The notes under the pieces were generated by a model, which searched no databases, was not told the origin of the DNA, and saw only the letters and a list, made by a program, of their open reading frames with translations. Below, one piece after another: positions 4,240-60,242 of a DNA stretch of 60,242 bases. The first letter of the stretch is position 1. Each line of letters starts with the position of its first letter. Source of the stretch: an uncultured Candidatus Saccharibacteria bacterium (GTDB lineage: Bacteria > Patescibacteriota > Minisyncoccia > Minisyncoccales > CG1-02-41-26); the NCBI GenBank assembly GCA_964383715.1, contig CAYLHU010000001.1:17733-77974 (forward strand), in the 5' to 3' direction. The position numbers were made by a program, and so were the translations under genes.

Positions 4240-5598
4240 TCAAATTGGGGATAATTTTTTGGTCAATTCATAAATATCGCCGGCTCCCATCATTATCAAG
4301 ACATCAATCTTTTTATTTTTTAATTCTTCTTTTAGTTGAGAAATAAGATTTTCTTTCTCCAAGTAAATTATTGAATTGTTTTTTATTTTCCTCACAAGTT
4401 TTTTGGAATTAATTTTCTTTTTTATTTTTTCATCCTCTCGTCCTGAAACATCAAAAATATCGGTAATTATTATTTTATCCGCTAACCCCATATCTTTAAT
4501 TTTTTGGAAAGTAGAGACGAATTTAAGTAAAAGATGAAAAACCCTCTGATATTGGTGGGGCTGGAAAACAAGCCAAATTTTCTCATTTTTAAATTTTCCC
4601 CGAGCTGCTTTCAATGTAGCTAAAATTTCCGTTGGATGGTGGGCATAATCGGAAATTAGTTTGTAGTTTATTGTTTGTAGTTTATGATTTTTAAAAGAAT
4701 GATTGGATTCTTCAAATCGTCGCCAAGCGCCTTGATAATCGGAAAGGGCGGAAAAGGAAATGTCATCTGATATACCTAAAATCCTTGCTGTCTCTAAGGC
4801 GGCTAAGGCGTTCTCAATATTATGTTCACCCGGCACTTTAAGTATTTTTTTAAGAGTTTTTTTATCCTTGGGTTCCTCTTTTTGAAAATTGAAAATTGGG
4901 AATTGGAAATTGAAAATTAATTTTTTAATATTCTTGTCCTTTCCGTTGATTATTAATATCCCCTCTTTTGGTAAATGGCTGATATATTCTTTGTAGGTTC
5001 TCAAAATATGGTTTAGATTTTTATAATAATCCAAATGTTCTTTTTCAATATTGGTCAAAATAATTATTTGAGGATAATAGTTTAAGAAAGAGGCCTGCCA
5101 TTCATCGGCTTCAATAAGGAGATATTTGCTTTTTCCAGCCCTGAAATTAGAGTCGTCAAACTCTTTGAGTTTTGTCCCGATTATGACTGTCGGGTCCAAG
5201 CCAGCTTTTATTAAAATCAAAGCCAGCATTGAGGAAGTGGTGCTTTTTCCATGAGTCCCGGAAACAGCGATAGTAAAATGTTTTTTAGTTAATTTGCCAA
5301 GAGCTTGAGGGTAACTTAAGACCTGTAACTTGTAACTTGAAACTTGTAACGCAAGAGCCTTTTTTAATTCAGGGTTGTTTTTTTGGATAGCCGGGCTATA
5401 AATTACCAAATCGGTATTTTCGGGCAAATTATCGGACTTATGCTCTCCGATAAAAATTTTAGCTCCCTTTTCTCTAAGGAGATTTATAATTTCCGAATCT
5501 TTTAAGTCTGAACCTGTTATTGTTTCCCTTTTTTCTAAATAATATTGGGCTAAAGCGGAAACACCGATTCCCCCAATACCAATAAAATGTATATTCAT
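4240..5598 (-). CDS. murC: UDP-N-acetylmuramate--L-alanine ligase MurC
   Basis: IHFIGIGGIGVSALA Rossmann N-terminus and GTHGKSTTSSM P-loop. The probable true start is the ATG at 5598 (MNIHF), because the longer ORF start lies inside the upstream low-complexity repeat. Confidence 0.9.
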   Translation of the reverse strand: MNIHFIGIGGIGVSALAQYYLEKRETITGSDLKDSEIINLLREKGAKIFIGEHKSDNLPENTDLVIYSPAIQKNNPELKKALALQVSSYKLQVLSYPQALGKLTKKHFTIAVSGTHGKSTTSSMLALILIKAGLDPTVIIGTKLKEFDDSNFRAGKSKYLLIEADEWQASFLNYYPQIIILTNIEKEHLDYYKNLNHILRTYKEYISHLPKEGILIINGKDKNIKKLIFNFQFPIFNFQKEEPKDKKTLKKILKVPGEHNIENALAALETARILGISDDISFSALSDYQGAWRRFEESNHSFKNHKLQTINYKLISDYAHHPTEILATLKAARGKFKNEKIWLVFQPHQYQRVFHLLLKFVSTFQKIKDMGLADKIIITDIFDVSGREDEKIKKKINSKKLVRKIKNNSIIYLEKENLISQLKEELKNKKIDVLIMMGAGDIYELTKKLSPI

Positions 5599-6741: not shown

Positions 6742-7737
6742 ATGCTTACTAAACAAAAATTATCTTTGCCAGTTTTAAAGAAAATTCTTAAAGATTATGA
6801 GTTGGGAGAAATTAAGGAGATAAAGTCAATGGCTACCAGTGGGAATATTACTTTTTTAATCACTTCCAATATTGGAAAGTTTGTTTTGAGACTTTGCCCT
6901 AAGGGAGAAAGATGGAGATCTAAAGAAGAAATTTTAGCGGAATTGGAGTTAACTGATCATCTTCTTAAAAATAATTTTCTCATATTAAAACCTGTTGTCA
7001 AAAAAAATGGTGAAAGAATTATTAGTTATAAAGGTAAATTTGGCTATTTGCGTGAATATAATACCAGTAAACCTATTTTAAACCCAATCGTTAAACAGGT
7101 TGAGGAATTTGGTAAATTAGTAGGTTGGTTTCACTCTTTGGTTAAAGGATACAAAACAAAAAACTCCAGAAACCATCTCTGGGACTTAAAAGAAACTAAA
7201 AAATATTTTCAAGAAAAAAAGAGAATTATTCTAAAAAGTAATTTTAGAAATAAGAAGGAATTCATAGAAAGATTTGAGAAAGAAATTTTTTTATTAAAAT
7301 TTTCCAAAGATCTTCCTTCGGGTATGATTCACGAAGACTTGGGGAAAAGGCACATTCTTTGGGAGGAGAAGAAAATAAAGGCAGTTTTGGATTTTGATCG
7401 TTGTTATTATGGCAAGCTTATCCTTGATTTGGGTCAGGCCTGTCGTAGCTGGTGTTTTGTTGATAATTGGGAGAAATGGAGCAATGGGAATTTCAAAGTT
7501 TTTTTAAAAGGATATATCACCAAGAAAAAACTAAAAAAAATTGAAAAAGACCATTTGTTCCCAGCGTTAAAGTTTGCTGTTTTAGAAAGGGCTTTGGCTT
7601 TTTGCCTTCGTTATATTGAACAAACCAATGATAAAGAAGATGAAAAATTTGTTTGGCATTCTATCTCAAAAAATGGGCCTTTAGGGATATTAGAGAAAAA
7701 TGAGCAAGGGATTAAAAAAATAATAAAAACCGCTTAA
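6742..7737 (+). CDS. Phosphotransferase-family kinase (APH / homoserine kinase type II-like)
   Basis: Catalytic-loop-like IHEDLGKRHILW followed by DFD. The length and layout fit the APH/ChoK fold. Confidence 0.6.
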   Translation: MLTKQKLSLPVLKKILKDYELGEIKEIKSMATSGNITFLITSNIGKFVLRLCPKGERWRSKEEILAELELTDHLLKNNFLILKPVVKKNGERIISYKGKFGYLREYNTSKPILNPIVKQVEEFGKLVGWFHSLVKGYKTKNSRNHLWDLKETKKYFQEKKRIILKSNFRNKKEFIERFEKEIFLLKFSKDLPSGMIHEDLGKRHILWEEKKIKAVLDFDRCYYGKLILDLGQACRSWCFVDNWEKWSNGNFKVFLKGYITKKKLKKIEKDHLFPALKFAVLERALAFCLRYIEQTNDKEDEKFVWHSISKNGPLGILEKNEQGIKKIIKTA

Positions 7738-8476: not shown

Positions 8477-9106
8477 ATGGTTAAAAAAGTTAAAAGAAAA
8501 AGTTTATCTTCACCAAAGCTTCCGCCTTTGCCAAGGATTCCACTTTCGTCAGAGCTTCCACCTTCGTCAGAGCTTCCACCTTCGTCAGAGCTTCCGCCTT
8601 TGCCAGAGCTTCGGCCTTTGCCAGAGCTTCGGCGGACAAGTCGGCGGACAAGTCGGCGGACAAGTAAGCGAACAATAAAGAAGAAAAAAAGAGAAGAAAC
8701 TGATATCCAAAAGATTGTTAATCATTATTTTCAAACGAAAGGTTTTAGCTTAGAAAAAATAAAGAAAGACGCCAAGAAAAAGAAAATTATCTATTCCCGT
8801 TTTACTCGGCCGGCGAAACAACTTTTAGAATTGGCTGGTTCGGTTAAAAAAGCCCAAAAAGCGATTGATATTGTTGCCGGCTGGGCAAAATCAAGAAAAT
8901 TGGATTATGCGATTGAAACCGTTTTTAAGAAATGGTTAGAGATTGATAAATTAAAACCCAAAGAAATAGTCAAAAAGCCCTTTTTTGAGAATAAGCCGAT
9001 GGTTTGGTCGGGAAATTGGAAAAAATGGTATGTTATTGACGATAGTGGCGACTGGTTAGAGTTTGTCGGCGATGAAAAAAGCATTGAATGGCGGAAAATG
9101 AAATAA
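8477..9106 (+). CDS. Hypothetical protein with a tandem-repeat N-terminus
   Basis: The N-terminus reads LPPSSE x3, then LPPLPE/LRPLPE, then RRTS x3, encoded by 18-nt and 12-nt DNA tandem repeats. The C-terminal part is basic and has no recognisable family. Confidence 0.5.
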   Translation: MVKKVKRKSLSSPKLPPLPRIPLSSELPPSSELPPSSELPPLPELRPLPELRRTSRRTSRRTSKRTIKKKKREETDIQKIVNHYFQTKGFSLEKIKKDAKKKKIIYSRFTRPAKQLLELAGSVKKAQKAIDIVAGWAKSRKLDYAIETVFKKWLEIDKLKPKEIVKKPFFENKPMVWSGNWKKWYVIDDSGDWLEFVGDEKSIEWRKMK

Positions 9107-9654: not shown

Positions 9655-9922
9655 CTTACGAAGTAAGGGTTCGTTGGAGATGAAGCTTTAGCTTCATCGA
9701 CTATACACCGAGCTTTTGCGAAGTAACTCAAAGATTTTTTTCAAAAATCTTTTCCACTCACCCTTGCTTTGCAAGGGTTCGTAAGCGAAGGTAATGCGAT
9801 GAAAGATTACTTTCATCTTAACTCGCTCACAAAATGAGCCCGTAGATGAGAGCGAAGCTCTCATCGCCTACGAGCCCACGAAGTGGGCGAGTCAAGATGA
9901 AGACGAAGTCTTCATCGCCTAC
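9655..9922. repeat. Hairpin-element array
   Basis: gatgaagctttagcttcatc (9679-9698), gatgaaagattactttcatc (9798-9817), gatgagagcgaagctctcatc (9845-9865), gcccacgaagtgggc (9874-9888), gatgaagacgaagtcttcatc (9896-9916), plus the composite accgagcttttgcgaag... module. Confidence 0.9.
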
Positions 9923-12642: not shown

Positions 12643-12894
12643 TTTTAGAAAATTTATTGATTAAATTTTAACGACCTTACTCTCAACTTGGAGATTACGG
12701 CACCTTCTCTAACAGAGATTTTATCTTACAAAATCTCATTTAAAGAATTGCTACTTTTGATTATACAGAAGTTATTTCTTTTGTCAAATGTTTTTTGGGG
12801 AAAACAAAAATCACAAAGGAAATTACGAAGGTTAAACCTTCGTAATTTTTAGTTTCTATTTTGAATCTATATTTTTTAAAAAAAAGGGGGTTGA

Positions 12895-13235: not shown

Positions 13236-13673
13236 CTATGGTTTCACAATATCTAATAATTCAATTTCAAACACGAGAACAGCACTTGGCGGAATTACAT
13301 TAGGAATTCCATTTGGCCCATAGGCGAGGTCGGAAGGAATTGTTAATTTTCGCTTCTCTCCTACTTTCATTTCTAAAATACCTAAATCCCAACCCTTAAT
13401 AACCCGACCGGCTCCCAATTGGAAACTAAATGGTGTTCCCCTATCCAAGCTTGAATCAAACTTTGTTCCATCTTCAAGAGTCCCGGTATAGTGGACAGAA
13501 ACGGTATCTCCGTTTTTTACTTCTTCTCCTGTCCCCTCTTTTAATATTTCTATTTTTAATCCGTTATCCATAATTTTTTCTTTTGTTCCTTTTTTATTGC
13601 CTAAAATAAAGACGCCGACAATGACGACAATAATAACGGCAACGACCAAAGAAACGATTAATATTTTTTTCAT
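13236..13673 (-). CDS. FKBP-type peptidyl-prolyl cis-trans isomerase, membrane anchored
   Basis: N-terminal TM helix, then VHYTGTLEDGTKFDSS ... GAGRVIKGWD ... LVFEIELL. Confidence 0.85.
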   Translation of the reverse strand: MKKILIVSLVVAVIIVVIVGVFILGNKKGTKEKIMDNGLKIEILKEGTGEEVKNGDTVSVHYTGTLEDGTKFDSSLDRGTPFSFQLGAGRVIKGWDLGILEMKVGEKRKLTIPSDLAYGPNGIPNVIPPSAVLVFEIELLDIVKP

Positions 13674-13690
13674 AAATTTATTTAGTTAGA

Positions 13691-13833
13691 ATATTATATT
13701 CGTTACCCCTCTATTTTTATTATAACCCTATTTCCCAAAATCCCAAATAAAAAACAACAGGGTTAAACCGTGTTGTTTTTTAATAGTTTGAGTATAGGAT
13801 GGCGTTAGGACTTGTTTGAAAAATAATTAGATT
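13691..13833 (-). repeat. Terminator-plus-promoter module, copy 1 (long form)
   Basis: Near-identical to 15731-15873, and in its core to 14983-15071. Read on the minus strand it holds a hairpin terminator (aacagggttaaaccgtgtt plus a T-run), then TTGGGA-16 nt-TATAAT directly upstream of the FKBP gene. Confidence 0.8.
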
Positions 13834-17140: not shown

Positions 17141-17419
17141 AAATACTATTTTATCTACTTTCAGTATAATCCTATTTTTCGAAGAATCCAAACAAAAAAT
17201 CGCTTGAATAAAAAAACGATTTGTATTTGTTGCGGAGCTTGGATTCAGACACCGAGTTTTTGCGAAGCAACTCAAAGAGATAAATCTCTTTTCTACTTTG
17301 CACTTTTGCTTCGCAAAAGTTTAAGTAAGTGAAGGTAAAGATGAATGCGGAGCATTCATCGCCCTTCGGGCTTTGTTCAAGATGAATGCTTGCTATTCCG
17401 TAGCCTTGGCGAAGGATAG
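17141..17419. repeat. Hairpin-element array, left flank of tRNA-Gln
   Basis: Contains the composite module accgagtttttgcgaagcaactcaaaga..., gatgaatgcggagcattcatc (17339-17359) and agcccttcgggct. Confidence 0.85.
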
Positions 17420-17490
17420 TTGCGGGGCTAGGACTCGAACCTAGATAGACAGCTCCAAGGGCTGTTGTCCTACCGTTAGACGACCCCGCA
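17420..17490 (-). tRNA. tRNA-Gln (anticodon UUG)
   Basis: Cloverleaf folded by hand. It has a U1-A72 pair, T arm CTAGG-TTCGAGT-CCTAG and anticodon arm ACAGC-CCTTGGA-GCTGT. The loop appears to have C at position 33. Confidence 0.75.
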
Positions 17491-17728
17491 TTAGGAAGTG
17501 AATAAGTGGATAAGTGGGGGCGATGAAGGAGTACCTTCATCTTGACTCGCTCACTTCGTGGGCTCGTAAGTGAACAAGTGGGTAAGTGGGTAAGTGAAGG
17601 CGATGAATACTCCGCATTCATCTTGACCCGCCCACTTCGTGGGCTCACGGGCGATGAATGTTTCGCATTCATCTTGACTCAACCCTTTGGGTTTCGTAAG
17701 TGAACAAGTGAGCACTTGAGCACTTAAA
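17491..17728. repeat. Hairpin-element array, right flank of tRNA-Gln
   Basis: Three units of gcgatgaNNN-loop-NNNtcatcttgac, each followed by a gcccacttcgtgggc-type UUCG hairpin. aagtg-rich words lie between them. Confidence 0.85.
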
Positions 17729-31514: not shown

Positions 31515-31601
31515 ACGAAGCCCGAAGGGCTGAGTTAAGATGAATGCGGAGCATTCATCGCCTGCAAATGAGCAAAGTGAGCTCGTCGAAAAGAGAAGTG
31601 C
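31515..31601. repeat. Hairpin elements between mraZ and rsmH
   Basis: agcccgaagggct (31519-31531) and gatgaatgcggagcattcatc (31539-31559). The latter is identical to the copy at 17339. Confidence 0.85.
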
Positions 31602-37765: not shown

Positions 37766-38126
37766 ATTTAGGTGCGTTTTGGGACGATCGTCCTAGAATG
37801 ACCTTTTTCCCCCTTTTTCTCCCTTTTTTGCCTATATCTATCTATTTATTTATTTTATAACAAATCCTGACGATCGGCGATATTTGTTATAAAATGTTTC
37901 TTTTGCCTTATCCTGTCTATCTTTACATTTGGGTGCGTTTTGGGACGATCGTCCTAGAATGACCTTTTTCCCCCTTTTTCTCCCTTTTTTGCCTATATCT
38001 ATCTATTTATTTATTTTATAACAAATCCTGACGATCGGCGATATTTGTTATAAAATGTTTCTTTTGCCTTATCCTGTCTATCTTTACATTTGGGTGCGTT
38101 TTGGGACGATCGTCATAGAATGCACC
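37766..38126. repeat. 161-bp tandem repeat, about 2.2 copies
   Basis: ggtgcg starts at 37771, 37932 and 38093, giving a period of 161. Each unit holds a CGATCG-centred palindrome and the hairpin ttttataacaaat-[cctgacgatcggcgat]-atttgttataaaa. Confidence 0.9.
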
Positions 38127-38218
38127 TGAATTTGTTGAGAGAAAAATTAAGAGAGAAGTTTTTTATTTAACGGAAATTGTTCAAAAATTTATTTTTATTA
38201 GTTTTTATTTTTTCGCTA

Positions 38219-45658: not shown

Positions 45659-45928
45659 TTAATTAAGTCCTCGACTTTTATATTTATTTTTAATAATGAG
45701 AATCCCACTAACGATTAACATAGCACCAATTGAAATTGATAAAAGGGTGTTAGGATAATAAAAATAAGCTACTCCTACTATCTTCTCAGCTCCCACTGCA
45801 GGTAAACGAAGACCATAGCTAGTTCTATAGGAAAAGCCAAAAATGTTATATGCACAAAGTCCTGTGCCAATTATAATCATTATTGCTCCTAAGTATTGTT
45901 TTATAAATTTCTTAATTTTTTCTCTCAT
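45659..45928 (-). CDS. Small membrane protein (hypothetical)
   Basis: The start at ATG 45928 (MREKIKKF) is preferred. The sequence upstream of it is a duplicated non-coding leader, also found upstream of the DUF3800-like gene. Confidence 0.45.
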   Translation of the reverse strand: MREKIKKFIKQYLGAIMIIIGTGLCAYNIFGFSYRTSYGLRLPAVGAEKIVGVAYFYYPNTLLSISIGAMLIVSGILIIKNKYKSRGLN

Positions 45929-46207
45929 AAATTTATTTTTCGCTCTTTCTTTTAAAATACTCCCTTTTTCATCTTTTATCAATCCTTTTGGAGAAGAATA
46001 AAAGATGACTGGGTTAAACCCAGTCATCTTTTGTCGTTGTCCACTAACATTAAATTACCGGGGTCAGACCTCGGTATTTTAATAATATGATAAAATTTGA
46101 GCGAAGCGAAAATTTGCAGCAGGGGCGGCAGGGCGCTACGAGATAAATCTCGTCTTTCCCTTTGCCCTACCATAAAATAAAAAACACATTTAGTGTTTTT
46201 TATTTTA
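45929..46207 (-). repeat. Duplicated leader module, copy L
   Basis: Aligns with 47619-47949, apart from an extra roughly 50 nt in copy R. It holds two hairpins and a 17-nt fragment of the tRNA-Trp 3' end (46117-46133). Confidence 0.85.
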
Positions 46208-46283
46208 TGGCAGGGGCGGCAGGGATCGGACCTGCAACCTTTGGTTTTGGAGACCAATGCTCTTCCAGTTGAGCTACACCCCT
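46208..46283 (-). tRNA. tRNA-Trp (anticodon CCA), copy 1, CCA encoded
   Basis: AGGGGTGTAGCTCAACTGGAAGAGC, anticodon arm TTGGT-CTCCAAA-ACCAA, and 3' end CGCCCCT-G-CCA. The T-loop reads TCCGATC, so C sits at the usually invariant U55 position. Confidence 0.8.
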
Positions 46284-46310
46284 AATTTTTCATAAAATTA
46301 TAATATTTTC

Positions 46311-46661
46311 TTACGCTTCTTTGTCTTTCTTTAAGTTAGCGCAATAGGCAAAATGAAAAAAATACTTGTCTAAGTCCTTTAAAGAGCTTTTATATTCTTT
46401 TCCTCCCGAAATTGCATCTAAAAAAACTTCTCTGGCTCGAGCAATTTCTCGCAATCGTTCTATCCAACGGGGGTCCCCTAATGTTAGGTCAAAAAGTTCA
46501 AGGGTTCGAGACACGGCATTTTTGAAGTTATCTTGATTTTCATTTTTCCAGCGAAGCACTCTACTCACTTCGCTCCCGATATTCCCGAGTTGCTCACAAA
46601 GAGAAAGATTTTGCCAACCTCCCGAAGATAATTCTTTATGAATGGATTTATAATTTTCCAT
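46311..46661 (-). CDS. Hypothetical all-alpha protein, paralog 1 (possibly MazG-like NTP-PPase superfamily)
   Basis: About three quarters of residues are identical by eye to 48050-48400. The motif CEQLGNIGSEV weakly resembles the MazG EExGE helix. Confidence 0.5.
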   Translation of the reverse strand: MENYKSIHKELSSGGWQNLSLCEQLGNIGSEVSRVLRWKNENQDNFKNAVSRTLELFDLTLGDPRWIERLREIARAREVFLDAISGGKEYKSSLKDLDKYFFHFAYCANLKKDKEA

Positions 46662-46815: not shown

Positions 46816-46855
46816 AGGGCGTCGGCTCGATTGGCCGATGGCCCTTTTTCTTTTT
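46816..46855 (+). terminator. Intrinsic terminator, stronger in the plus orientation
   Basis: gggc-gtcggc-[tcgattg]-gccgat-g-gccc followed by tttttcttttt. On the minus strand the trailing run is only tttctc. Confidence 0.6.
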
Positions 46856-47618
46856 ACTCTAATTTACTATCGTCATGATGAAAATGAATGTTAAAAGTAT
46901 AATTTCTAAAATTATTCGTTAGTGTTTTGACGCCTAAATTCTCCTTAAATCTTTCCACGAATTTTCCTTTATATAAAGATGGTTTATCAATAATTTTTTC
47001 TTTAAGTAGTAGTTCATAGTTTATTGAACCAATTAACAAATCTGTTAATTGTAATAAGTCATTTGTTTTTGAATCCAAACGGCAAACTCCGGCAATGGCT
47101 AATCTTTTAAACTTGTTATTTACGCTATTTTTAACATTAACCTCAAACTTTATAATTTTTGGTGCAGTCATATCATCTGCTAAAACTATTAAAACCTCGT
47201 TTTTGCCTAAATTTCCTATTAATAATTGTTTAACGATTTGCTCATAAGCAATCCAAGGATTTTCGTTAAACTCTTTTTTGAAATACTCACTTCTCTTGTC
47301 TATTGTATAAGAAGCAAATTTCACACTTTTTGTTTCAAATAAAGTGTCCAAAACTTCTGATGCAATATTTATTTTAACTTTATTCAGATTATTAAATTTC
47401 AATTCCCACCAAAACCTATTTTTAGACCTAATATATTTTATTTTTTGTTGCAGGTAATATGGTTGTGAGCATTTTATCATTCCAACCGTAAAATACGGTT
47501 GGCTTTTTATGTCTAAAGTTCCTGATTCGTCAATAAAACAAAAAGGTGTCCAAATATTTTTATAGTCAGCTAAAGCTAATGCTTTATTTGTTTCTTTTTT
47601 ATTAAGATTATCAACCAT
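46854..47618 (-). CDS. DUF3800-like protein
   Basis: N-terminal FIDESG and C-terminal DSKTNDLLQLTDLLIG match the DUF3800 pattern as I recall it. Confidence 0.6.
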   Translation of the reverse strand: MVDNLNKKETNKALALADYKNIWTPFCFIDESGTLDIKSQPYFTVGMIKCSQPYYLQQKIKYIRSKNRFWWELKFNNLNKVKINIASEVLDTLFETKSVKFASYTIDKRSEYFKKEFNENPWIAYEQIVKQLLIGNLGKNEVLIVLADDMTAPKIIKFEVNVKNSVNNKFKRLAIAGVCRLDSKTNDLLQLTDLLIGSINYELLLKEKIIDKPSLYKGKFVERFKENLGVKTLTNNFRNYTFNIHFHHDDSKLE

Positions 47619-47949
47619 AAATTTATTTTTCGCTCTTTCTTTTAAAATACTCCCTTTTTGTCTTTTATCAATCTTTTTAGAGAAGAATAAAAAATGACTG
47701 GGTTTAACCCAGTCATTTTTTGTCGTTGTCCTACCAGTATTAAATTACCGGGGTCAGACCTCGGTATTTTAATAATATTATAAAATTTGAGCGAAGCGAA
47801 AATTTGCAGCAGGGGTGGCAGGAGGCGATGAGAACGAAGTTCTCATCTTGACTTCTCGCTACGCTCGTCGCGTGCTACGAGATAAATCTCGTCTTTCCCT
47901 TTGCTCTACCATAAAATAAAAAACGCATTCAGCGTTTTTTACTTTTCAG
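47619..47949 (-). repeat. Duplicated leader module, copy R, with an inserted hairpin element
   Basis: Same as copy L, plus an insertion at about 47823-47875 that contains gatgagaacgaagttctcatc. The tRNA 3' fragment lies at 47807-47822. Confidence 0.85.
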
Positions 47950-48022
47950 CAGGGGTGGCAGGGATCGAACCTGCAACCTTTGGTTTTGGAGACCAATGCT
48001 CTTCCAGTTGAGCTACACCCCT
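47950..48022 (-). tRNA. tRNA-Trp (anticodon CCA), copy 2, no encoded CCA
   Basis: Same sequence as copy 1 except for a canonical TTCGATC T-loop, a T6-A67 pair in place of T6.G67, and a 3' flank of CTG instead of CCA. Confidence 0.85.
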
Positions 48023-48049
48023 AATTTTTCATAAAATTATAATATTTTC

Positions 48050-48400
48050 TTACACTTTTTTATCTTTTTTTAAGTTAGCGCAATAGGCAAAATGAAAGAA
48101 ATATTGTTCTAAGTCCTTTAAGGAACTTTTGTATTCTTTTCCTCCCGAAATTGCGTCTAAAAATACTTCTCTAACTCGACCGATTTCTCTCAATCTTCCT
48201 TTCCAACGAGGGTCATCTAATGTTAAGTCAAAGAGTTCTAATGCTCGTTCAACTGCACCCCGAAAAAGATTTTTGTCTTTTCCTTGCCACCTATATGCTC
48301 TGCCGACTTCACTCCCGATATTCCCGAGTTGTTCGCAAAGAGAGAATTTTTGCCATTTTCCTGAATATAATTCTTTATGAATGGGCTTATAATTTTTCAT
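48050..48400 (-). CDS. Hypothetical all-alpha protein, paralog 2
   Basis: The start at MKNYKPIH (48400) gives a length matching paralog 1 and avoids overlap with the upstream MazG gene. Confidence 0.5.
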   Translation of the reverse strand: MKNYKPIHKELYSGKWQKFSLCEQLGNIGSEVGRAYRWQGKDKNLFRGAVERALELFDLTLDDPRWKGRLREIGRVREVFLDAISGGKEYKSSLKDLEQYFFHFAYCANLKKDKKV

Positions 48401-49496: not shown

Positions 49497-49757
49497 ATGA
49501 AATACCCGGAAAGTTTAGTAAAGAGGATCAGGGAAGAGTTCTCAGAAAAACATCTTCTGTTCGCGTTAGATCAGCAGAATACTCGCTTCGTGAGTGTCTT
49601 CCTCGAAGATAATTGTCAAGACGGCTTTGATCTTTTGGCCGAAAAAGTCCTTGTCGCTCTAAATGAAGGTGACTTGTTGATCATTAGGGAAGCGGCAGAG
49701 AAAGCGATCCGTCGAAAAAAACTTTATGAAGATTGGTTAAAGTATCTTCAGGAGTAG
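49497..49757 (+). CDS. Small hypothetical protein (86 aa)
   Basis: Own canonical promoter, strong SD and a plausible terminator (about 49790-49822). More G+C-rich by eye. Confidence 0.5.
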   Translation: MKYPESLVKRIREEFSEKHLLFALDQQNTRFVSVFLEDNCQDGFDLLAEKVLVALNEGDLLIIREAAEKAIRRKKLYEDWLKYLQE

Positions 49758-49834
49758 TAAATATCAACTATTCGGCATTAACTACCCTATGGCCCTGCGA
49801 TAACATCAACGGGCTTTTTCATTTCGTAGTTTTT

Positions 49835-50035
49835 AATTATTTACGAGTTTTTGCGAAGCAAGTCAAAGATTTTTTTTCAAAAATCTTTTCCACTCACTTG
49901 CTCCGCAAGTTCGTAAGCGAGTCAATCGATGAGGGTTCCACCCTCATCTTTACAAGCTCACTTTGTTCGCTTGTAGATGAAAGTACTCTTTCATCGCAAA
50001 TCACTGACATTCTAACATTCCAACAATTCCAATAT
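49835..50035. repeat. Hairpin-element array downstream of rpmG
   Basis: The composite module acgagtttttgcgaagcaagtcaaaga...tcttttccactcac is shared with 9705-9790 and 17250-17330. Also gatgagggttccaccctcatc and gatgaaagtactctttcatc. Confidence 0.85.
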
Positions 50036-50040
50036 TTCCC

Positions 50041-50202
50041 CTACTTCTTCCCTTCCTTATGTAAAACATGCTTCTTGCACCACTTGCAAAACTTCTTCAG
50101 CCCTAATTTTTCTTCAACTCCTTTTGATTTGTTGACCCTATAATTAACTCTTTTACATTCAGAGCATTGGAGTTTTATAAAGGGTTTCTTTTTTTTAGCC
50201 AT
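50041..50202 (-). CDS. rpmG: 50S ribosomal protein L33, absent from the ORF track
   Basis: My translation is MAKKKKPFIKLQCSECKRVNYRVNKSKGVEEKLGLKKFCKWCKKHVLHKEGKK. It has the CxxC...CxxC zinc ribbon and the LELKKFC-like motif typical of L33. Confidence 0.85.
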   Translation of the reverse strand: MAKKKKPFIKLQCSECKRVNYRVNKSKGVEEKLGLKKFCKWCKKHVLHKEGKK

Positions 50203-50319
50203 AATTTTTTAATTATTTACCCAAACAAAGTGAAATGTGAAAAAAGATACTATGAGATCTTGTCTTATCTTGTCTCGCCTACTATGCGGGATTATAAACA
50301 AAGTTCTCTTATCATTATA

Positions 50320-50392
50320 AGCCGAGACGCGGGGTTGAACCGCGGACCTCGTTATTACCAATAACGTGCTCTACCAACTGAGCTATCTCGGC
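50320..50392 (-). tRNA. tRNA-Thr (anticodon GGU)
   Basis: GCCGAGATAGCTCAGTTGGTAGAGC, anticodon arm CGTTA-TTGGTAA-TAACG and T arm CGCGG-TTCAACC-CCGCG. Confidence 0.85.
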
Positions 50393-50448
50393 AGATAAAT
50401 AAAAAGATTATTTATCATTTATTAATAATCATTTATTAATAATTATTA

Positions 50449-50533
50449 TGGGTGCGGTCGGAGTCGAACCGACGGGGCTCAAAAGAACAACTGTTTTACA
50501 GACAGATCCCACCCCCTATGGGACTACGCACCC
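50449..50533 (-). tRNA. tRNA-Tyr (anticodon GUA), long variable arm
   Basis: GGGTGCG acceptor, anticodon loop CTGTAAA, a long extra arm and T arm GTCGG-TTCGACT-CCGAC. Confidence 0.8.
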
Positions 50534-51193
50534 ACGAGCGATTATATACGAAAGCTTTGCTTTCGTATATAATCGCGAGTTAAGATGAAAGTAATCTTTC
50601 ATCGCCCACAAACTTATAATTATGAAAACTTTTTTTCATAATTATAAGTTTGTCAAGATGAGGGTAATCCCTCATCGCTATCGAGTGGTTAATTATGAAA
50701 GAGTTTCTTTCATAATTATAGGTTTATGAAGATGAGGGTAATCCCTCATCGCTAACGCTCGAACAGGCAAGAGCAATGAATGCTTCGCATTCATCTTTAC
50801 TCAGCCCTTCGGGCTTCGTTCAAGATGAGGGTAATCCTTCATCGACCGAGACTTCGCTTCGCGAAGTCGAAGGTGGAAAAGAGAACGGAGTTCTCTTTGA
50901 CTATAATCGAGTTTACGAAGCATTCAATGAAAACTTTCTTTCATAATTATAAGTTTGTCAAGATGAGGGCGGAGCCCTCATCGCTAACGCTCGAACAGGC
51001 AAGAGCGATGAATGCTTCGCATTCATCTTTACTCAGCCCTTCGGGCTTCGTTCAAGATGAGAGTAATCTCTCATCGGCCGAGACTTCGCTTCGCGAAGTC
51101 GAAGGTGGAAAAGAGAACGGAGTTCTCTTTGACTATAATCGAGTTTACGAAGCACTCAATGAAAACTTTGTTTTCATATCTAATCGTGAGTCA
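50534..51193. repeat. Largest hairpin-element array, containing a 232-bp tandem duplication
   Basis: At least 12 distinct hairpins. gctaacgctcgaacagg starts at 50751 and again at 50983. Eight GATGA...TCATC-type stems. Confidence 0.9.
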
Positions 51194-51916
51194 TTATAAA
51201 ATTATTTTACTATGCTTGTCTCTCCATTCCTTAATTTTTTTATGGTCGCCTGATAATAAAACTTTTGGCACTTGCCACTTCTTCTTTTTAAGAGAGTTTA
51301 TAAAAACTTCAGGTCGGGTATATTGAGGATATTCTATAAACCCTTTATCTTTACTTATTCTCTCTTTTAACAATTCCGGTTTACCAATAACTCCCGGCAA
51401 TAATCTAACCACGGTTTCAATTAACACCAAGGAAGCCAACTCTCCTCCCATCAAAACATAATCCCCTATTGAGACCTCTTCGTCAGTAATATACTTAGCC
51501 ACCCTTTCATCAATCCCTTCATAACGGCCGGAAATCAAAATTAATTTGTCATATTGGGAAAACTTCGTAGCCATTTTTTGATTGAATTTCTTCCCCCGTG
51601 GCGTAAATAGAATTATTTTTGATTTTTTGTTCTTAATGGTTCGGCTTTGCTCACCATCAACCCTGAGCGAAGTCGAAGGATTATTTTTTAGTTTTAAAGA
51701 TTGAATACATCGATAAATGGGTTCAATTTTGATAACCATTCCCCTACCTCCGCCGAAGGGCTTGTCATCCACTGTTTTTCTTTTATCCTTAGAAAAATCC
51801 CTCAAATCGTGAATCTTGATTTTAACAATTTTCTTATCCCTAGCTTTTTTAAGAAGCGATTGATTCAAATAAAAATCAAAAATCTTTGGGAAAATTGTAA
51901 TAATATCAATGTCCAT
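51194..51916 (-). CDS. trmD: tRNA (guanine37-N1)-methyltransferase TrmD
   Basis: DIITIFPKIF, GGGRGMV and SGRYEGIDERV. The start at MDIDII (51916) is preferred. Confidence 0.88.
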   Translation of the reverse strand: MDIDIITIFPKIFDFYLNQSLLKKARDKKIVKIKIHDLRDFSKDKRKTVDDKPFGGGRGMVIKIEPIYRCIQSLKLKNNPSTSLRVDGEQSRTIKNKKSKIILFTPRGKKFNQKMATKFSQYDKLILISGRYEGIDERVAKYITDEEVSIGDYVLMGGELASLVLIETVVRLLPGVIGKPELLKERISKDKGFIEYPQYTRPEVFINSLKKKKWQVPKVLLSGDHKKIKEWRDKHSKIIL

Positions 51917-51981
51917 ATAAAAAAGTGGCGCCACTATATAATTATAGTAGCACCACTTTTAAAAAATACAACTATAGAAGC

Positions 51982-59897: not shown

Positions 59898-60242
59898 ATG
59901 GTAATAAAAATTAATACTATTCGGCATTCTCTATCCCATATTCTCGCTTATGCGGTTCAGGAATTATATCCCGGAACCAAGTTTGGCATTGGTCCTGCTA
60001 TTGAAAATGGCTTTTATTACGATTTTGATATGATAAACTCGATTGCTTTAGATTCTTTGCCAAAAATTGAAAAAAAGATGAAAGAGCTGATTAAAAAGGA
60101 CATTAAGTTCAGAAAAAAAATCGTATCTCGAACAGAATCTAAAAAAATATTCAGGAACCAACCGTATAAATCGGAAATAATTAAGGACTTGATAAAGGGC
60201 GATGAAGCTAAAGCTTCATCTTCCCCCCTCGCTAACGCTCGG
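59898..60242 (+). CDS. thrS: Threonine--tRNA ligase, 5' part, running off the window; no N-terminal TGS domain
   Basis: I translated from the ATG at 59898: MVIKINTIRHSLSHILAYAVQELYPGTKFGIGPAIENGFYYDFD. This is the ThrRS editing-domain signature. Confidence 0.85.
   Translation, partial: MVIKINTIRHSLSHILAYAVQELYPGTKFGIGPAIENGFYYDFDMINSIALDSLPKIEKKMKELIKKDIKFRKKIVSRTESKKIFRNQPYKSEIIKDLIKGDEAKASSSPLANAR

Follow-up and report, generated by a model that had tools for sequence, protein, structure and literature searches.

A hairpin array between trmD and tRNA-Tyr contains members of a dispersed family of oriented palindromic elements in Parcubacteria

The DNA analysed here is a 60,242-nucleotide stretch of contig CAYLHU010000001.1 (assembly GCA_964383715.1, positions 17,733 to 77,974), hereafter the window, from an uncultured Candidatus Saccharibacteria bacterium that GTDB places in Patescibacteriota, Minisyncoccia, Minisyncoccales, CG1-02-41-26. 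Our subject is an array of DNA hairpins in the spacer between the trmD stop codon and tRNA-Tyr (50535-51193), together with the family to which its GATGA hairpins belong. On the minus strand, trmD (51194..51934) ends in a stop codon (51194-51196) that abuts the array, and tRNA-Tyr (GUA; 50448..50534) has its 5' end 3 nt from the hairpin H1; tRNA-Thr and then rpmG follow on the same strand. ARAGORN miscalls the tRNA-Tyr (window 50448-50534; L008 6768-6853), which has a long variable arm and an Rfam score of only 35.8 bits, as Phe(aaa) (contigs other than that of the window are cited by L numbers). The tyrosine identity given in a preliminary description of the locus is correct: the anticodon loop, taken from the sequence, is CUGUAAA, and the orthologues of relatives are called Tyr(gta).

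Read by increasing coordinate, with F and R denoting the two orientations of the family defined below, the array opens with H1 (50538..50576), an AT-rich hairpin with a TTT loop whose perfect stem measures 18 bp rather than the 17 bp first reported. It is followed by the GATGA-family hairpin G1 (50584..50603, plus strand, F), by H2 (50608..50653), AT-rich with a 21-bp perfect stem, and by G2 (50657..50676, plus strand, F), which reads GATGAGGG-TAAT-CCCTCATC. The 13-bp hairpin H3 (50690..50718), a partial copy of H2, lies in a 74-bp sub-repeat (50582-50756), and next comes G3 (50731..50750, plus strand, F). With the 3' part of H3 and then G3 begins copy 1 of a 232-bp tandem unit (50695..50926), which continues with G4' (50775-50795, R, its foot degraded to AATGA), an AGCCC-TTC-GGGCT hairpin (50803-50815), G5 (50824-50843, with one G-T pair), S1 (50850-50868) and S2 (50878-50898). 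Copy 2 (50927..51158) starts with H4 (50927-50944) and holds G6 (50962-50982, loop CGGAG), G7' (51007-51027, R), a second AGCCC-TTC-GGGCT hairpin (51035-51047), G8 (51056-51075), S1' (51082-51100) and S2' (51110-51130), after which H5 (ATGAAAACTTTGTTTTCAT; 51159..51178) starts a third unit. AGCCC-TTC-GGGCT (AGCCCTTCGGGCT), GACTTCGC-TTC-GCGAAGTC and AAAGAGAAC-GGA-GTTCTCTTT are each present twice in the array. Every hairpin named in the preliminary description lies where it had been placed, and its count of eight GATGA-type stems holds, with perfect stems at 50584, 50657, 50731, 50962, 51007 and 51056 and imperfect ones at 50775 and 50824. Perfect hairpins with stems of 8 bp or more number 72 in the window, whereas shuffled sequences contain 4-13; 16 of the 72 are in the array, whose folding energy gives z scores of -23 (minus strand) and -15 (plus strand).

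The order trmD, tRNA-Tyr, tRNA-Thr, (rpmG), tRNA-Trp is conserved in relatives. Among the 42 relatives in which tRNA-Tyr directly follows trmD, the spacer between the two measures 14-114 nt in 41 (median 35.5), against 659 nt for the array, and the exceptional relative, with 823 nt, has a small TrpR/YerC-like gene there and not hairpins. We therefore find that the array is a lineage-specific gain of modules. The organism belongs to the Patescibacteria/Parcubacteria, and its relatives are not close: in a collection with one genome per species, TrmD identity reaches 59-67% in the best matches, several of them labelled Nealsonbacteria, and the nearest TrmD other than the window's own among 5.8 billion proteins is ~70% identical. 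In L233, a 183-aa open reading frame (ORF) with no Pfam hit on record (4976-5527) lies between tRNA-Tyr and tRNA-Thr, which are adjacent in most relatives.

The core of the family is an oriented element of 20-21 nt, 5'-GTnA-AGATGA-(3-4 variable bp)-loop-(3-4 bp)-TCATCG-CC-3'. A strict search returns 20 perfect GATGA-stem copies in the window, among them one at 46004 that is terminator-like, with T-rich flanks, and that we leave out of the family. When put in the same orientation, 22 copies align to the consensus GTnAAGATGA-RNN(N)-loop-(N)NNY-TCATCGCC, in which A-GATGA ... TCATC-G is invariant. The upper 3-4 bp vary yet stay complementary: 95.5% of cells in this alignment are paired, and both-sided changes occupy 27 cells versus 7.9 in shuffles, with 0 of 500 shuffles reaching the observed value and slid controls collapsing. 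In the F orientation (flanks AA...GCC), the loop is usually GAA or GGA closed by C-G, and otherwise TAAT, TACT or TTTA; one metagenome contig has an AAA loop closed by C-G. As DNA, mini-hairpins with GNA triloops of the d(GCGAAGC) type have exceptional stability. The polarity of the loop follows that of the flanks, with the copy at 47827 as the sole exception in the window. R-oriented units commonly carry TTGAC on their 3' side and, beyond it, another small hairpin whose loop is C(TTC)G, or C(GAA)G in the F reading; the whole forms a module of 47-55 nt. Scored with a covariance model of the family alignment, the 21 seed copies of the window reach 33-49 bits in 60 kb, and 20 of the 21 are extragenic; the two AAAGAGAAC-GGA-GTTCTCTTT hairpins of the array are weaker matches to this model. 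Read on the plus strand, the copies of the window are 12 F and 9 R, among co-directional genes.

The preliminary description missed that the GATGA hairpins are a dispersed, oriented family. The window has copies at six further places, and others lie within coding genes and in other genomes. For instance, a cluster at 9679..9916 has four GATGA hairpins (9679 F, 9798 R, 9845 F, 9896 F), and both sides of tRNA-Gln carry copies (17340..17673), one F at 17340 and three R at 17522, 17602 and 17653, each of the latter with the second C(TTC)G hairpin. The mraZ-rsmH spacer holds a two-hairpin module of 47 nt (31515..31561, minus strand; GATGA copy at 31539), one copy lies downstream of tRNA-Trp (47827..47847, minus strand) with its loop polarity flipped relative to the flanks, and two lie downstream of rpmG, the L33 gene (49928..49995; 49928 R, 49976 F). 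Near these last two, two Logan contigs end at 49897. The sixth place is in thrS and is described below. Distant copies can be nearly the same sequence: G1 with its flanks (50575-50605) is 100% identical over 31 nt to 9796-9826 on the opposite strand, and the 47-nt module at 51005-51051 is 96% identical to that at 31515-31561.

Beyond the window, 743 kb of sequence around trmD from 81 other Parcubacteria gave clear matches to the model only in L012 (several), L233 and L016, and L012 has an identical 29-mer, AAGATGAAGACGAAGTCTTCATCGCCTAC, in common with window 9892-9920. A metagenome scan with the pattern GCGATGA-N9-11-TCATCTTGAC gave at least 120 matches, of which at least 12 lie in low-GC contigs and have a complementary inner stem and the expected second hairpin; true copies occur in at least about 10 contigs. 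The surroundings of these arrays recur: L115 and L163 have four hairpins between tRNA-Ile and tRNA-Val, L149 and L206 have four tandem 47-nt units directly upstream of tRNA-Arg, L125 has one hairpin upstream of tRNA-Arg, and L178 has five after a sigma-factor-like gene. The family is thus patchy, locally amplified and frequently adjacent to tRNA genes, and a hand count across all loci gives a weak bias, an excess of about 2:1, towards the R orientation on the transcribed strand. A literature search, not exhaustive, found no description of it. We also considered a viral origin of the family, and rejected it: the same pattern gave 14 matches in IMG/VR, none with the inner stem and all of them chance hits.

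A second, composite repeat of ~90 nt directly precedes GATGA hairpins and occurs at 9707-9796, 17250-17335 and 49836-49925 and in L012 at 7085-7135 and 7455-7500. Its form is ..GAGyTTTTGCGAAGyAAsTCAAAGA-hairpin-TCTTTTCyACT..-hairpin-..GTAAG.., and its core, TCAAAGAGATAAATCTCTTTTCC, recurs just upstream of tRNA-Thr and tRNA-Trp in L012.

Members of the family also stand in frame in coding genes. At the edge of the window (60170..60242, minus strand), thrS contains a module of ~55 nt, made of a GATGA hairpin (60201-60220) and a GCTAAC-GCTCG-GTTAGC hairpin, whose peptide, GDEAKASSSPLANARLAQQ, falls in an 18-residue gap relative to a solved threonyl-tRNA synthetase (PDB 6vu9); the contig of the window ends just past the module, and the stretch continues in L001 (1440-1540). 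L118 has this ~55-nt module too, as an interruption of a 791-aa membrane protein; it is read in the thrS frame (GDEAKASSSSFANARL) and matches the thrS copy at 50 of 59 nt. In the rnhB gene of L012, a GATGA hairpin and a second hairpin add ~15 residues to RNase HII in comparison with the window protein and other relatives, and in the trmD of L233/P0016 a short GATGA hairpin (AAGATGAACGAAGTTCATCGCCTA) with a nested hairpin adds ~30 residues. On the coding strand, thrS and L118 have the R orientation, whereas rnhB and the L233 trmD have F. TrmD of the window has its own loop insert of 14-16 aa, NNPSTSLRVDGEQSRT, encoded at ~51640-51690 and absent from the closest relatives, several relatives have unrelated inserts of similar character in the same loop, and the DNA of the window's insert shares GCGAAGTCGAAGG with the S1 hairpin of the array. 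That this insert may derive from family-type hairpin DNA is suggestive only.

Based on these comparisons, we propose that the array and its family are probably palindromic DNA, selfish or neutral, of the kind known from REP/BIME, BOX or Rickettsia palindromic elements (RPE). We base this on a phyletic distribution that is patchy and includes a burst in this genome, on near-identical copies at unlinked sites, on the presence of both orientations among co-directional genes, on nesting and local amplification, and on in-frame insertion into essential genes. By analogy with REP/BIME and RPE, the array would represent a new family among the interspersed palindromic repeats that form mosaic clusters, and not a novel sort of gene. 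The elements would spread at the level of DNA, most plausibly with a protein that recognises the hairpin foot, for which the model would be a RAYT or an IS200/IS605-type single-strand transposase encoded elsewhere in the genome; an invariant foot, a free upper stem and a DNA-stable triloop are what a hairpin-recognising single-strand enzyme would require. Spread of this kind would tolerate both orientations as well as in-frame insertion into surface loops of essential proteins. In transcripts, the hairpins would fold on either strand and may incidentally stabilise or punctuate the RNA, though this would not be their reason for being there.

Several observations weigh against the proposal. Neither a Y1 nor any other transposase Pfam hit occurs among the genes of the window or on the other contigs with gene and Pfam tables, and the ORFs beside the arrays of L118, L178 and L224, of which no Pfam scan was made, read as housekeeping or unknown. 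The two comparable insertions, those in thrS and L118, have no target-site duplication, and with the nearest other TrmD ~70% identical there is no pair of filled and empty sites, so that transposition itself is only presumed. A host function would also account for two features: stems that hardly ever depart from perfect pairing, and a foot shared by lineages whose TrmD proteins are only 62-74% identical. In addition, copies are enriched next to tRNA genes. As a more tentative extension, the AGATGA/TCATCG-footed GNA-triloop hairpin may be the substrate of a putative hairpin-specific protein conserved across Parcubacteria, which could be either a single-strand DNA transposase or a host RNase, possibly one that trims tigRNAs at the CUU of the stem base. 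If so, a system operating throughout the Candidate Phyla Radiation (CPR) would reshape the flanks of tRNA genes and add new peptide loops to essential proteins, and ultra-small genomes would have a distinct and mechanistically new equivalent of REP-RAYT and RPE.

Of the other explanations, the one that survives best, although we hold it to be rather unlikely, is a host function in RNA: as leader or spacer structures, the hairpins would insulate or stabilise trmD mRNA and the tRNA-Tyr/Thr precursors or guide their processing, for example as punctuation for RNase III, RNase P or another RNase in the manner of Correia/NEMIS or REP in RNA, and the array would be maintained by that role. The position of the array suits such a role, since intrinsic terminators (a G+C-rich hairpin with a T run) are found at 0 sites in 49700-51400, making co-transcription of trmD with the tRNAs likely; H1 ends 3 nt from the 5' end of tRNA-Tyr; and in L163, L125, L149 and L206 the arrays lie directly upstream of or between tRNA genes. 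Array hairpins are followed by GCC or TTGAC. The stems of H1 and H2, at 18-21 bp, are long enough for RNase III, and the strong stem covariation and the ~2:1 excess of R on the transcribed strand point the same way, as does the processing of CPR tigRNAs at a stem-base CUU (bioRxiv 10.64898/2026.09.09.750476), given that the R form here ends ...UCAUC-UU. However, both orientations occur, and the same hairpins stand in essential mRNAs (R in thrS; F in rnhB and trmD), where cleavage or termination should do harm. The 8-9 bp stems are short for RNase III, 41 of the 42 relatives manage with spacers of 14-114 nt, and most relatives do without the family altogether. The RNA role and the DNA-element reading are compatible, as REP and Correia elements do both (PMC10969869).

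Other RNA and promoter identities were tried for the array. In Rfam only tRNAs pass the gathering threshold, the best sub-threshold hits of the array being at most 25 bits versus thresholds of 35-140. We rejected a promoter, for which each 232-bp unit offers one sigma-70-like box on the minus strand (50927-50900 and 51159-51132), as not significantly above shuffles, and we rejected the TTGAC of the R-form 3' flank as a -35 box, which would be too close to the tRNA 5' end in L206 and L125. A K-turn or box C/D reading of GAUGA fails because GAUGA is fully Watson-Crick paired with UCAUC, and a tRNA-minihelix or RNase P mimic (hairpin followed by GCC) has the wrong orientation in most of the tRNA-upstream copies.

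CPR bacteria are thought to depend on DNA uptake, and the conserved words might then be uptake-type signals arranged in inverted repeats, as in Neisseria and Haemophilus. TCATCGC does occur 21 times in the window versus 3.7 expected, but 16 of the 21 are in hairpin elements, the remainder equals the chance expectation, and most related genomes lack the word in this form; we consider this explanation very improbable. Slightly less probable still is a guide-RNA array of the TIGR-Tas type or of another RNA-guided system: although the host is a CPR bacterium and stem-loop TIGR arrays, which can lie in coding sequence and have CUU at the stem base (PMC12045711; bioRxiv 10.64898/2026.09.09.750476), are common in that group and also show variable palindromic stems around a conserved core, a scan modelled on TIGRFinder (box C CNA/CUU, 8-10 nt, box D UG/CG, twice, in a stem of at least 6 bp) gave 0 units on either strand of the window versus 0-5 in shuffles, loops of 3-5 nt are too small for two spacers, conservation lies in the outer foot and not at the loop-proximal end, and neither the called window genes nor the unannotated proteins have a Nop-domain hit.

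The tandem duplication within the array gives some insight into how the array grew. Tandem Repeats Finder reports a period of 232 bp at 50695-51178 (2.1 copies, 93% matches) and a 74-bp period at 50582-50756, made of 2.4 copies of a G hairpin plus an AT-rich long hairpin; the 74-bp period is the older of the two. As the preliminary description stated, gctaacgctcg begins at 50751 and again at 50983, and the two ORFs called at 50780..51199 and 51012..51326, both starting MLRIHLYSALRASFKMRV, are the repeat read as protein; neither has a Pfam match. The cores of the two copies (50743-50926 and 50975-51158) differ at 6 of 184 positions, with a longest identical run of 77 nt. It had also been claimed that the array grows by local duplication with its stems kept. 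The 232-bp block did arise in this way, with stems intact in both copies, while most of the array length consists of accumulated modules. Likewise, the reported paired change is real (G-C to A-T at 50830/50837, plus 50838) but does not demonstrate selection on the stems. Three of the six core substitutions fall in a single 20-nt hairpin (G5 versus G8) with pairing kept, and in L096 copy 1 has the copy-2 nucleotides at all five sites in 50775-50845 and not at 50923. Either a conversion tract has passed between the paralogous units of that population, or the L096 variant is a graph chimera. This clustering, together with the L096 haplotype, argues for patch-wise exchange between copies and not for stepwise or independent compensatory mutation, and suggests that hairpin tops or patches are exchanged among array copies.

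The boundaries of the 232-bp units fall in H3, H4 and H5, similar ATGAAA..TTTCAT hairpins that are the expected substrate for unequal exchange or slippage, and H5 is likely where the recombination behind the duplication took place. H4, at the junction, and the sequence left of G6 are closer to H2/G2 than to H3/G3; the loop of G6 is CGGAG, versus TAAT in G2 and G3. Taken together, the comparisons show that modules accumulated in a spacer that was ancestrally ~35 nt; unequal exchange between the similar ATGAAA..TTTCAT hairpins would then have duplicated the 232-bp block, and conversion may since have exchanged sequence between the two copies. That the duplication is instead an expansion or collapse artefact of assembly is hardly credible: several contigs do break inside copy 2 (four stop in this trmD-proximal copy, at 51036, 51056, 51078 and 51093, L096 among them) and the L096 contig mixes paralogous variants, but 49758-51194 (1437 bp) is base-identical in one contig from each of four samples, drawn from two sources (ENA ERZ27248922 and ERZ27248920; JGI 3300028191 and 3300028272; found via exact window proteins), and the copies differ at six core sites and have a longest identical run of 77 nt, shorter than the k = 141 implied by 'k141_' names. 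Spanning contigs show no variation in the unit number of the 232-bp repeat, and the population is nearly clonal.

Other parts of the window are repetitive or variable. A 161-bp tandem repeat (37766-38127; 2.2 copies, 98% identity) lies beside an unannotated 251-aa gene and is polymorphic in copy number, as the same place is 161 nt shorter in L085, from another sample. An 18-nt coding tandem repeat (8508-8630) lies in a 209-aa protein without Pfam hits, and L089 and L092 have one unit fewer (203 aa). At 13531-13748, L090 (JGI 3300028156) differs from the window at 15 positions in 220 bp, with near identity outside this patch, which looks recombined or hypervariable. A segmental duplication of ~740 bp (45926-46661 and 47616-48400; 84-96% identity) holds tRNA-Trp(CCA) and a 116-aa ORF, which is why the window has two tRNA-Trp genes, and a DUF3800 gene (46854-47618) lies between its two copies. 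Hairpins of a different family, AAAT(T)ACGGrGG-TCAGA-CCyCCGT(A)ATTT, occur amid A/T-rich sequence at 12820, 19142, 45156 and 45465, and look like bidirectional terminators; a further such terminator-like pair is at 46000-46032 and 47689-47721.

CPR/Patescibacteria genomes are usually described as streamlined. The window, from one Parcubacteria population, has about one oriented palindromic element per 3 kb; such elements crowd the flanks of tRNA genes, interrupt metagenome assemblies and, in thrS, lie in frame within the gene. They explain contig breaks, spurious 'hypothetical protein' calls such as the MLRIHLYSALRASFKMRV ORFs, and odd insertions in conserved proteins. The most useful by-product of the analysis is the finding of oriented hairpin modules in frame in thrS, rnhB and trmD of Parcubacteria. 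The family is a tractable case for asking how selfish hairpin DNA persists in tiny genomes and whether a conserved hairpin-binding enzyme exists.

Among known systems, stem-loop TIGR arrays (PMC12045711; bioRxiv 10.64898/2026.09.09.750476) resemble the family in being found in CPR, with variable palindromic stems and a short core, and in that they can be embedded in coding sequence, but the elements here have loops of 3-5 nt without dual spacers or box C/D motifs, and the window has no Tas gene. The Correia/NEMIS repeats of Neisseria (PMC10969869) are likewise hairpin repeats co-transcribed with their neighbours, and can be RNase III substrates and carry promoter-like boxes; they are, however, 100-150-bp miniature inverted-repeat transposable elements with terminal inverted repeats and a TA target duplication, and neither feature is seen here. 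Such transposable elements in general (Correia or ERIC, for example) measure 50-500 bp and have terminal inverted repeats and a target duplication; the units here are 20-55 nt, and the thrS and L118 insertions share no flanking duplication. The pneumococcal BOX, RUP and SPRITE repeats, as they are summarised in PMC10969869 (citing Croucher 2011), are also modular, with internally duplicated subunits and strong secondary structure, and different families bunch together and insert into one another; in that account BOX has a fixed A-B(n)-C order, whereas there is no fixed order here, and sequences and sizes differ.

The closest likenesses are to RPE and to REP. Like the present family, RPE (PMC10969869) are palindromic repeats in the reduced genome of a host-dependent bacterium, without a known transposase, that lie in frame in unrelated housekeeping genes and add a peptide segment, as the modules here do in thrS, the L118 membrane protein, rnhB and trmD. 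RPE are ~100-150 bp long and fall into ten Rickettsia-specific sequence families (PMC10969869), whereas the modules here are 20-55 nt, mostly intergenic and in a Parcubacteria host; the distinction rests on size and host rather than on a comparison with RPE consensus sequences. The REP/BIME/REPIN-RAYT systems of Enterobacteria and Pseudomonas (PMC3116915, PMC3337134) also consist of 20-40-nt palindromes in which the foot is conserved and the stem varies; most lie outside genes, in both orientations, and they form mosaic clusters with other motifs, often occur as inverted pairs and break assemblies. Inverted doublets here are G3/G4', G6/G7', 9798/9845 and 49928/49976. The genes of the window and of the other contigs with tables include no RAYT (Y1 HUH, PF01797) flanked by repeats. 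The foot here is AGATGA/TCATCG and not GTAG, which precedes only two copies (..GCCTAC on the other strand), and, unlike in REPIN, the members of a pair are complementary in the foot only and differ in their upper stems (I2 is 79% complementary over 29 nt). Finally, unlike in REP-RAYT systems, copies of this family also lie within coding genes, and the host is a CPR bacterium.

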